Positions 11,739 to 16,042 of a stretch of DNA of 64,000 nt are shown here, one piece after another. The position numbers and the translations under genes are program-made. A model generated the notes under the pieces. That model was given only the letters and a program-made list of their open reading frames with translations, did no database searches and was not told where the DNA came from. Every line of letters begins with the position of its first letter. The first letter of the stretch is position 1. Source of the stretch: Octopus vulgaris (lineage: Eukaryota); the NCBI GenBank assembly GCA_951406725.2, contig OX597822.1, forward strand, positions 110,112,001 to 110,176,000. The letters are read 5' to 3'.

Positions 11739-11820
11739 TATACTTTGTATACATTTGTATATATATATATATATATATATATAATTTCCCAAACAGAAAA
11801 TCTAAATGTTTTGTGTTTGA

Positions 11821-12939
11821 ATGAGATTGCCGAAAAAAACATCACAAGTGGTCAACACACGATCCGTCAAACAGATTCGTAGCAAACTGAAACATATCGA
11901 AGTATCTTTCAAACTGACAAAAGGCCATTATGAAAAGCTTCTTCATATTTTCACAGTTCAAGAACAGCAACAGCTAGAAAATCAGCAGCCACAACAACAA
12001 CAAGAACAGAATGAGCCACTCCTGGTTCCCAGCACAATGGCTGACCCTAACATCGGTCAAGCACAACAACAACAACAACAACAGCCACAGCAACAAGAAC
12101 AACAACAGCCACTCCTCAACTCTAGCTTACTAGATGATTCACTAAATGCCAGTATCTTTTCACCGCTCTCACGGCAACCACCACAATTATCATCATCATC
12201 ATCACCACCGCTGCCACCATCGTCTTCTATCACCAAAAATACCAACAAAAAAACAAATAAGAAACCACTGCCCTCTTCCCCCACATCACCACCTCAATAC
12301 TACTGCAGTAACAAAAACTTAAAGAAACATAGGAAGCAGAATGCGCCCCCCACGGCACAAACAAGAAATCCCCAAATATGCCGCTATTCACTGCGCCAGA
12401 GACTCTGCACAAATAGTGACTGCATCTTCACGCATCTACCCGGCACTAGACGCACTACCGACCAAGGCCAAAGCGTGCATCCCACAATAACATCAACACC
12501 ACCAAATAGTAAATCGAAATTCAAAACACACACAACTCGGAGTCCCAAAATCTGCCGGTATTCCCAACGTGAGAGAACATGTCTGCTGAGTGACTGTCCC
12601 TTCACTCATCTTCCAGGGACCCGACGCACAAACAGAAACGGGGCTTCAAGCCAACACACAAACCTGAATAAAAATAAAAATAGAAACACACCATGCTGCA
12701 GTAATGCTGGTCCAGTCTTTTCAGGAAGACACAAAAACAACAACAACAAAAGTGGAAACTACAACCCTATCCAACAGTACAACCACACCGCCAGCCAAAA
12801 ACTGCTCCCTAAGCAGGAAAATTCTTTTTTAGCCATGTTGAACATGGCAAAAGAGATACACAAAAACATTCTAGCCATCACTCAACACCATCCTATGCTA
12901 TTACCCCAGTGCACCAATTCCCCTCATTGCTGCCACTAA
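11821..12939 (+). CDS. LINE ORF1 with Q-rich region and two CCCH zinc fingers
   Basis: 372-aa ORF with CRYSLRQRLCTNSDCIFTH and CRYSQRERTCLLSDCPFTH (C-x8-C-x4-C-x3-H twice). Confidence 0.75.
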   Translation: MRLPKKTSQVVNTRSVKQIRSKLKHIEVSFKLTKGHYEKLLHIFTVQEQQQLENQQPQQQQEQNEPLLVPSTMADPNIGQAQQQQQQQPQQQEQQQPLLNSSLLDDSLNASIFSPLSRQPPQLSSSSSPPLPPSSSITKNTNKKTNKKPLPSSPTSPPQYYCSNKNLKKHRKQNAPPTAQTRNPQICRYSLRQRLCTNSDCIFTHLPGTRRTTDQGQSVHPTITSTPPNSKSKFKTHTTRSPKICRYSQRERTCLLSDCPFTHLPGTRRTNRNGASSQHTNLNKNKNRNTPCCSNAGPVFSGRHKNNNNKSGNYNPIQQYNHTASQKLLPKQENSFLAMLNMAKEIHKNILAITQHHPMLLPQCTNSPHCCH

Positions 12940-15900
12940 CACACACAAAAAATCCAAGCGCCCTGCAACAGTCAAAACCAGCCACTACACTAACCTCCAC
13001 ATTCCTACTCAATGCACAAGGTGTCAGCCCTTCCATCAATGCACAAAAATGGAAGGTCCAATTCATTGAAGACTGGGTTGGTAACCATTCACACCACATC
13101 CCTTTCTTCATTCTCACTGAGACCCACCTTGACAACTCCCACTTGGAAGCTGAAGTGAGAGTGAAGAATTTCACAACCATCCGCGCGGATCGTATCGGCA
13201 GGAGGAAGGGTGGAACTGCCATTTTCCTGCATGATTCATTTACGGCAGATGGAAATAGTATATTCTCCAACGGCTACTGTGAATCAGTCACCGTGCACAA
13301 CAAAGCCAATGACCTGACAGTAATTGGGCTCTATAGGCCGCCCCAAACACCCATACTGTGCTTTAAAGAATGCCTCAACAGCATTAAGTGCTTTATTCAA
13401 CAGTGCCATTCTAGCAACATACTCATGATGGGAGACTTCAATCTACCCTGTGTTGACTGGACTACAAACTGTTTGAAACCAAGCACTCCCGCCTCAACCG
13501 CTGACAAAGAAGCAGCAGAGTCACTTTTCGACTTTACGAATGAGTTTTTCTTGTCCCAACTTGTCCTTGCACCAACAAGACATCAGAACATTTTGGACCT
13601 AGTGTTTAGTAACCACACTAACACTATACATAACGTTACAGTGGGAAAAACCCTTCTTTCAGACCATGACATGGTTCTCTGTAACATGAAATTCCACCAG
13701 CCGAAAGCTAATCCTATTGACCTCCCTCCAGCCCACCCATTTGACAACATGGATCTCCATAATGCCAACTGGGATGCAATCAGGAACGAGCTATCACATG
13801 TTGACTGGTCCTTTACACATACACACATCTCCACCAACCATAAAACATCTTGGCAGATCTTTGTAGACACCGTCACAGACATATGTGCAAAACACTCCCC
13901 ACCAAGACCTGTGAACAAAAAGTGCAGAATCCCCCAAAACAGAAAAACCATTATCAGAAAAAAAAATAGAACAAACAAAAAAAATTAACAAACTAAAGTA
14001 CTGCCAACAGCAACACACAAATTCGACGGCTATCGCACTGCTTGAATCCAAAAAATATAACCTCCAACAATGCATGAAGACCCTCATCAAAAACCAAAGA
14101 TCAGCTGAGGAGAAGTGGGCCATTGAAAAAATCAAACTCAACCCCAAAGTGTTCTTTTCATTTGCGAGGAAACGCAGGGTCACTGTCTCCACTGTTGGCC
14201 CTCTAATTGACGAAACTGGCACTCTCCAAGATAATGCCAAATCCATGGTCGAGATACTGCAGAAACAATACTGCTCTGTTTTCAGCAATCCTGATATGGC
14301 CGATCTGGGCTGTATCAGTGATGTCAACCCCGAACACACTATATCGGACATAACGTTTAGTGCCCCTGATGTCTTAGCGGCGATAAACGAAATAAAACAC
14401 AATTCAGCAGTAGGCCCCGATAGGTTCCCTGCTTGTGTCCTGAAGGTGTGTCGACACCAACTTGCATCTCCCCTTGCTAATCTGTGGAGAAACTCACTGG
14501 ATGCTGGCTATATTCCAAAAAACCTTCTGTCCCAGTCTGTTGTCCCAGTTTTCAAAAAGAGAAACAAGTCCCTTGCAGTGAACTACCGTCCGATCTCACT
14601 CACCTCTCATATCATCAAGGTATTTGAGAGGGTGGTGAGATCTCGAATAACCCAATTTCTGGAAAGCAACAGACGGCTGATCTCCAACCAACATGGGTTC
14701 CGTAATGGAAGGGACTGCCTAACGCAGCCCCTGCATCACTTTGAGGACATTTTGAGAGCTTTGGGAGAGGGCTCCAACACCGATGTCATCTACCTTGATT
14801 TCAGTAAGGCCTTCGACAGGGTCGATCACAAGATCCTATTGAAAAAACTATCCAACATTGGTGTCTCTGGAAAGTTACTGAAATGGATCAGGTGTTTCCT
14901 GACAGACAGATCTCAACATGTTGTAGTTGAAGGGGTAAAATCAAGCCCAGCCAAAGTCAGTAGTGGCGTTCCGCAAGGCACTGTGCTGGGCCCACTTCTT
15001 TTCATCATTTACATTAATGACATTAATGACATCATCAAGCACAGCAACATAAAAATTTTTGCAGATGATTCCAAGCTACAGAAGGTCATAAATGAGGCGA
15101 GTGACCGGACATGCCTTCAGTCAGATCTACTGGCTGTTATCCAATGGGCAGAAAAAACAATATGCTGCTGAACGAGGATAAATTTGAGTTAATCCACTTT
15201 GGAAAAGAGGATGCCCTGAAACTCCCATACTCCCTTCCTTCAGGTGAAACTCTCGCGGCGTCCAACAACATCAGAGACTTGGGAGTAATTGTGGACAACA
15301 ACATAAGCTGGGCCACACATATAAACACCAAAGTTGACATGGCCCGCAGAATGTGTTCCTGGATTCTCAGAACTTTCCAGTCGAGAGATATCCACACCAT
15401 TATCCTTCTCTTCTCCACTTTTGCCCGACCCCACCTTGAATACTGTTGTCCACTGTGGTCTCCCCACACAATACAAGGTATCATAAAAGTTGAAGCACCT
15501 CAAAGGGCAATCACAAAAAAGATAGATGGCATGACAGGCCTCGACTATTGGGGTCGACTAGAAAAGCTAAAACTTTATTCTCTCCAACGTCGTCGTGAGC
15601 GCTACATCATCTGCATGATGTGGAAAATATTCCATCAGCATTGCCCAAATGATGTTGGCATCACCTTCAGGGTACATCCAAGGCTTGGGCCCCGTGCCAT
15701 CCGCCCAAAACAAAAATCGCACTCTCATCTCATAACAACAATACGGCACAGTTATTTCACCTCAATTGGCCCCGCTCTCTTTAACATTACACCAAAACAC
15801 ATTAAAACAGAAACTGACCCTATAGGGTTCAAGAAGTCTTTGGACAGATTCCTTCAAGAAATCCCGGATAAACCCCCTACACCCGGATATGTCTCTGTAA

Positions 15901-15944
15901 ACAATAACTCTCTACTTGAGTGGGCCATAGTGCCCAAATTCTGA
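12813..15944 (+). CDS. LINE ORF2: APE endonuclease + reverse transcriptase, two single-base frameshifts in A-runs
   Basis: APE motifs LNAQG, TETHL, GGTAI, YRPP, GDFNLP, ILDL, SDH; RT motifs NYRPISLTS, QHGFR, YLDFSKAFD, GVPQGTVLGP, FADD, DLGV. Frame changes at A-runs ~13958-13984 and 15152-15157. The frame opens at 12813 with no upstream ATG. Confidence 0.9.
12825..12848 (+). promoter_or_regulatory. Candidate -1 ribosomal frameshift signal (T TTT TTA + hairpin)
   Basis: Heptamer 12825-12831 is correctly phased in ORF1 codons (TCT TTT TTA). GCCATGT-TGA-ACATGGC stem at 12832-12848. The -1 frame is ORF2. Confidence 0.5.
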
Positions 15945-16042
15945 CTTGAAAGACTTCACCAGGTGGTGCTATTAAGTTGGACATGGCCTGGGCCAATAAT
16001 GGCCGAAACCTATCAAAGTATCAAAGTATCAAAGTATATATA

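Follow-up and report, generated by a model that had tools for sequence, protein, structure and literature searches.

How the second reading frame of a non-LTR retrotransposon is translated, when it opens inside the first and has no usable start codon of its own, is the question raised by an element in the 64,000-nucleotide stretch of Octopus vulgaris DNA analysed here (the window). Translation of ORF2 from the bicistronic LINE RNA is called unclear, with reinitiation as the working model, in passages of PMC3708506 and PMC5009743. In this study, we argue from comparison of the element's own copies, its sister families and its distant relatives that ORF1 and ORF2 are very probably fused through -1 ribosomal frameshifting on the heptamer U_UUU_UUA.

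The element and its reading frames

The window holds, at 11785–16014 of the forward strand, a 5'-truncated and broken copy of family A, a young non-LTR retrotransposon of the APE type. It is about 98.5% identical to L033, an intact copy; its end is formed by TATCAAAG repeats, and it lies in (TA)n surroundings. The dispersed copies of family A, which share a 3' end made of short repeats and are truncated to varying extents at the 5' end, fit a retrotransposon of this type; we presume it to be CR1-like from its architecture, our tree being made up of unnamed relatives. ORF1 of the window copy (11785–12939, forward) lacks the first 27 codons or so and carries an extra A at 11833; in intact copies it encodes 409 amino acids, with a Myb/SANT-like N-terminus, CCCH-like fingers and a C-terminal tail beginning Ser-Phe-Leu. 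ORF2 (12813–15944, forward; in intact copies, 1043 codons from one stop to the next) encodes a linker, an APE endonuclease from about 12999 and a reverse transcriptase, in that order (domain matches PF14529, PF03372 and PF00078), and its best solved relative is L1 ORF2p. The domain search detected no protease in ORF2, so that a fusion protein would likely remain uncut. The 3' UTR (15945–16038, forward) includes the terminal repeats and a block common to a second family, B.

The reading-frame features on which the original prediction rested proved exact. ORF2 lies in the -1 frame of ORF1 and opens after a TAA at 12810–12812 (forward) that closes its frame just upstream of the putative slip site; the heptamer T TTT TTA at 12825–12831 (forward) is in phase with ORF1, where it is read as TCT TTT TTA (Ser-Phe-Leu); and the ORF1 stop TAA at 12937–12939 leaves an overlap of 127 nt. 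The first ORF2-frame ATG, at 13425–13427 (forward), falls in the sequence LMMGDFN, some 140 codons into the endonuclease, and intact copies likewise have none before this residue, 205. What had been missed is that the window copy is 5'-truncated and carries three further one-nucleotide homopolymer indels, at 11833 in ORF1 and at 13977 and 15152 in ORF2. The frameshift claim is therefore about the family and not about the window copy.

The T-run in family A

Junctions of family A were counted in the 2.8-Gb assembly (G000) through exact flanks, copies with altered flanks being left out. Among 325 junctions, 200 have six Ts (T6), 99 five, 18 four, and all other forms together number 8; the 125 that are not T6 may reflect either biological slippage or assembly error. 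Intact ORF1 and ORF2, the latter with its first Met at residue 205, are present in 7 of 11 full-span copies chosen among the best matches, and an intact ORF2 in 5 of 20 T6 copies chosen regardless of score. Outside the assembly, all seven junction-spanning contigs, one from each of seven of eight public runs (organisms A–E), have six Ts and are gapless there; the eighth run (X6) gave short pieces only, and contigs lose minor variants. Six Ts is thus the source state of family A.

The original prediction had cautioned that a T6/T7 homopolymer error might conceal a single ORF. T7 is not the state of the family: apart from T6, T5 and T4, all forms together number 8 of 325. That the element is in reality one ORF and T6 an assembly error would agree with the other homopolymer indels of the window copy and with the 18 T4 copies, which are in frame because T4 fuses the frames, two of them carrying an unbroken ORF of 1410 amino acids. 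Against it stand the T6 majority in three families, in the contigs of seven runs from five organisms and in unrelated assemblies, and the absence of reverse transcriptase motifs from all of the best 150 of 2490 clusters of ORF1 relatives described below; we give this explanation next to no weight. A T4 in-frame source lineage, hinted at by four T4 copies and one T5 copy, was also rejected: 30 of its 32 marker copies were read and their junctions are mixed, from T3 to T7. Copies with four or five Ts turn up in each of the four sub-lineage classes, beside T6 copies.

In the assembly, the family A T-run (T4 in L245–L262, T5 in L263–L292) is far less stable than the other six-base A runs of the element, in which 11 single-base losses were seen in 296 observations (7 of 39 in one run), or than the T-runs of families B and D. 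Moreover, the ORF1 start is reached by all 18 T4 copies, compared with 29 of 49 copies with T6 and 18 of 30 with T5 (Fisher p 0.0006). An RNA-level slip that yields more fusion protein in cis would fit these two observations, and poorer polishing of long repeats would fit as well.

The same observations favour a reading in which it is the RNA polymerase that slips on the T-run, so that U4 or U7 transcripts would encode a one-frame fusion and mobilise T6 RNAs in trans. We consider this quite improbable. The T-runs of families B and D are stable, the contigs of three runs guessed to be RNA (X2, X10 and X13) read T6, though contigs lose minor variants, and a polymerase would slip without regard to codon phase, whereas the heptamers of the wider set of relatives are phased, as reported below.

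The heptamer in sister families

Family B was found in the same genome by a protein search with a distant relative; its ORF2 is 64% and its ORF1 about 25% identical to those of family A. Its junction is TAA C TCT TTT TTA, with T6 in 53 of 59 junctions. Two old copies of family C have TCT TTT TTA, and family D, whose ORF2 is 38% identical to that of family A, has a TGA followed by AGT TTT TTA, with T6 in 24 of 24 junctions. A tree built from 25 elements places L145, L147 and L148 together with families A, B and D in a clade with 100/100 support, the row for family D being long and only partly filled. All six have T TTT TTA between 3 and 12 nt past the stop of the ORF2 frame, behind TCT, AGT or CCT. 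Their ORF2s are 29–64% identical and their fourfold sites agree in only 20–39%, so that synonymous sites are saturated; the probability of the heptamer given each element's own codon use is 0.5–1.9%, and among other Phe-Leu pairs 1 of 28 is written T TTT TTA. The heptamer is in phase in families A–D and in L145, L147 and L148, and it is conserved beyond what the protein demands.

Five of the six clade elements have no ATG before the endonuclease, family D included. The exception is family B, whose ORF2 frame has an ATG ahead of the endonuclease, 23 codons past the heptamer and some 60 nt short of the ORF1 stop. This ATG bears on the alternative described for other LINEs, in which a separate ORF2 protein would arise by reinitiation after the ORF1 stop, at an AUG or a non-AUG codon, and the heptamer would be a by-product of a conserved Phe-Leu. 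Such routes are described in parts of PMC2881922 and PMC3708506 as an unconventional ORF2 initiation, proposed for L1, and a UAAUG termination-reinitiation, shown for SART1. There, as in the present case, a single bicistronic LINE RNA is involved and ORF2 output depends on ORF1 translation; unlike it, a separate ORF2p is made there whose start coincides with the ORF1 stop or follows it, whereas the ORF2 of family A opens 127 nt before that stop and has no usable ATG. Near-cognate GTG, TTG and CTG codons do occur within 40 nt of the family A stop, and most clade members have their ORF1 stop near the endonuclease start. However, A, D, L145, L147 and L148 have no ORF2-frame ATG that is close to the ORF1 stop and ahead of the endonuclease; D, L147 and L148 have no ORF2-frame ATG, CTG, GTG, TTG or ACG within 40 nt of it; and the TAAATG of B and L148 sets its ATG in the ORF1 frame and not in that of ORF2. 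Reinitiation also leaves unexplained why T TTT TTA is fixed at the synonymous level and why the -1 frame is open from the heptamer across an overlap of 100–400 nt. Thus we regard it as improbable, and -1 slippage as the better account of these junctions.

A further caveat of the original prediction was that TTTTTTAG could be a 3' splice site, which would give a spliced RNA joining an upstream start to ORF2. An AG does follow the T-run in A, D, L145 and L147; it is missing elsewhere, for the heptamer is followed by a C in family B, a T in family C and an A in L148. Nor did the eight runs contain a joint ending at 12832, and contigs cross the site unspliced, although the RNA nature of three of the runs is guessed. 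A splice site at the T-run is on this evidence highly improbable.

The ORF1 N-terminus changes within the clade (L031:511-1737, L085, L115, L145 and L148) while the CCCH fingers and Ser-Phe-Leu are kept; it is Myb/SANT-like in A and B, below the Pfam cut-off, and L145 has a PHD finger there, as does D, though weakly. A near-identical block of about 50 nt is common to the 3' UTRs of families A and B (window 15963–16011; L085) despite their saturated synonymous sites; it is likely a recognition element for the reverse transcriptase.

Distant relatives

Among 80 metagenome loci, 41 reach the start of the endonuclease; 17 have a -1 overlap (an ORF of at least 150 codons that overlaps so that ORF2 is in its -1 frame), 5 a +1 overlap, and 19 neither and were dropped. 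The median endonuclease identity in this set is 32%. When A, B and D are added to the 17, a heptamer of the form X XXY YYZ is present in phase in 17 of the 20 -1 elements, where 2.3–3.0 were expected from their own ORF1 background, and in 1 and 3 of 20 in the other two phases; the rule also accepts A-rich forms, which lysine-rich tails produce easily. Three of the 17 metagenome elements have no heptamer, and L147, whose contig starts 41 codons upstream, stands outside the count of 20. The same rule was applied to a second set of 80 loci from genome bins, taken to be host DNA binned with prokaryotes, 39 of them with an endonuclease start. Here the heptamer is present in 5 of 6 distinct -1 elements (0.7 expected), and the sixth has T TTT TTG. 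In-phase X XXY YYZ occurs in none of the 10 +1-overlap elements (0 of 5 in each set). P values for these heptamer counts treat related elements as independent and so overstate the case.

The ORF1 proteins themselves carry a compatible signature. A search with a single ORF1 sequence matched no homologue; a profile of four ORF1 tails matched 2490 clusters at 50% identity. Among the best 150 of these, 112 could be scored and 102 of the 112 have Phe-Leu past the last finger (22.7 expected), a count biased by the presence of Ser-Phe-Leu in the profile; when scoring used the zinc fingers only, 13 of 18 matches still had it (2.5 expected). No codon for Lys, Glu, Gln, Met or Trp ends in T. These five residues stand just before the Phe-Leu in 1 of 102 cases, compared with 24 of 102 at the preceding position, 30 of 102 at the one before that, and 30 of 80 before Phe-Leu elsewhere in the same proteins. 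The statistic concerns protein only, and such scarcity is the pattern that a constraint on T TTT TTA would predict.

RNA structure downstream of the heptamer

The original prediction also named a perfect 7-bp hairpin, GCCATGT-TGA-ACATGGC, as part of the signal. The hairpin is exact at 12832–12848 (forward), but as a conserved stimulator it failed, being seen only in family A and missing from B, C, D, L145, L147 and L148. It abuts the heptamer, and with a spacer of 0 it misfits the usual distance of 5–9 nt between slippery site and stimulator given in PMC5009743. Perfect 7-bp stems with loops of 3–8 nt number four in the 4620-nt element, so that such a hairpin is by itself no rarity; when the stem is lengthened to pair the T-run, it reaches -16 kcal/mol (z -3.7). 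Once its 5' arm is covered, folding predicts an alternative helix at 12836–12887 (forward), with a spacer of 4–5 nt, -10.3 to -10.7 kcal/mol and z about -1.5 to -1.8, which is a weak candidate stimulator. Short spacers are described in part of PMC5009743 as raising -2 shifting on U6A; in family A the -2 frame runs into a TAG straight away.

Among 20 junctions folded, only 9 rank in the top fifth when set against the background of the element they come from, and no stimulator shared on the 3' side was found. L147 has a clear strong stem at a spacer of 6, and the folds of B, D and L148 are unremarkable. Two other ideas were rejected. One was a pairing of the sequence past the slip site with the 3' tip of the element: family A has a 7-bp match 39 nt past the ORF2 stop, but 8 of 17 background windows match likewise, and no other element tested stood out. 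That T4 might be a better-folding form of the hairpin was dropped as well, T6 folding best.

Proposed mechanism

With the majority of family A junctions in the T6 state, no early ATG in ORF2 and an in-phase heptamer conserved among relatives, none of the computable grounds on which the original prediction could have been refuted applies, and the gag-pol-like fusion of ORF1 to ORF2 that it put forward is supported, at the level of sequence comparison. We propose that ribosomes translating ORF1 would slip by -1 on U_UUU_UUA after 374 codons and go on for 1037 codons, giving a fusion of about 1410 amino acids, the length of the single ORF in the two T4 copies. Tandem slippage of both tRNAs would yield the junction peptide ...ENSF(L/F)SHVEHGK.... 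Only a minority of ribosomes would slip and most would complete ORF1, resulting in a high ratio of ORF1p to fusion, like that of retroviral Gag to Gag-Pol. A ribosome positioned on the heptamer would unwind the abutting hairpin; it is possible that the weak helix at a spacer of 4–5 nt acts in family A, or that the site works with little structure. The overlap, its phase, the absent start and the conserved heptamer are plain in the DNA; the slip itself, its efficiency and its product we infer.

We see about an even chance that -1 frameshifting is the standard route to the reverse transcriptase in a large branch of animal LINEs, comprising 2490 or more clusters (50% identity) with this type of ORF1 together with relatives that use other heptamers. 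The slip would fall at the first residues of the conserved, helix-like C-terminal tail of ORF1, so that the fusion would keep the RNA-binding fingers and exchange the tail for the linker and the enzyme, and the dose of fusion in cis may set how often full-length insertions are made, as the uniformly full-length T4 copies hint.

Comparison with known systems

U_UUU_UUA is the -1 frameshift site of HIV-1 gag-pol, as given in PMC5009743. The two systems have an identical heptamer in identical phase, a nucleic-acid-binding first ORF overlapped at -1 by a reverse transcriptase ORF without its own start, and a predicted Leu/Phe heterogeneity at the junction. In contrast to HIV-1, family A is a non-LTR element (APE and reverse transcriptase), in which neither a conserved stem at 5–9 nt nor a protease was detected.

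Closer in element type are TRE5-A and TRE3-A of Dictyostelium, for which a figure legend in the review PMC5911963 states that ORF2 requires a -1 frameshift. Like family A, they are APE-type non-LTR elements with overlapping ORFs; unlike it, they are amoebozoan, tRNA-targeted and have a C-terminal zinc finger, and the portions of PMC5911963 that treat them give neither a slippery site nor an experiment. The word "frameshift" is absent from a 2017 review (PMC5633606). Recoding at the ORF1/ORF2 junction has likewise been suggested, from sequence alone, for groups 1–3 of the non-LTR elements of Paramecium, a ciliate clade, although there it is a +1 shift, reinitiation or readthrough that is considered in the relevant part of PMC5405496. 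The CR1/L2 lineages of the Jockey superfamily share an ORF2 with APE and reverse transcriptase, and the PHD fingers described for their ORF1s recall those of L145 and family D; the section on ORF1s in PMC4120745 lists PHD, RRM, CCHC, esterase and L1-type forms, and not Myb/SANT with triple CCCH. PMC4120745 does not use the word "overlap". We found no description in the literature of a slippery site at the junction of an animal LINE, CR1-like ones included; older subscription papers and Repbase Reports were largely outside the scope of this search, and an earlier suggestion may exist.

The junction is real, and -1 frameshifting at it is well supported as far as sequences can tell. A slippery site kept in phase would add a third route to ORF2 beside the two described models of LINE translation, and would answer how LINEs of the family A type translate their second gene. 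If this is correct, the active enzyme of many animal LINEs would be an ORF1-ORF2 fusion, the ORF2 proteins annotated in these families would carry a wrong N-terminus, and control of protein ratio in the style of Gag/Gag-Pol would be common to LTR and non-LTR elements.

Other arrangements among relatives

Several relatives join or separate their ORFs in other ways. Half of the 10 +1 relatives (L189, L191, L207, L371 and L402) carry C(C/T)(C/T)_TTT_C, in phase, within the overlap, where 1.3 were expected for a motif that was picked after seeing the data; it resembles the UUU_C sites at which some RNA viruses shift by +1. In four loci of the second set (L377, L379, L393 and L440), ORF1 and ORF2 are in the same frame with a single stop between them and no ATG before the endonuclease, which makes them candidates for readthrough. 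Single-ORF forms are predicted as well: P0020, with CCCH fingers, P0042, with a domain of the OTU family (PF02338), and P0043 have N-terminal domains in one frame with endonuclease and reverse transcriptase. No relatives were found among viral contigs, and a further motif had no copy in G000. Finally, ORF2s of the eukaryotic LINE type (L363–L442) lie on contigs in many prokaryotic genome bins, likely through contamination from the host or the environment.
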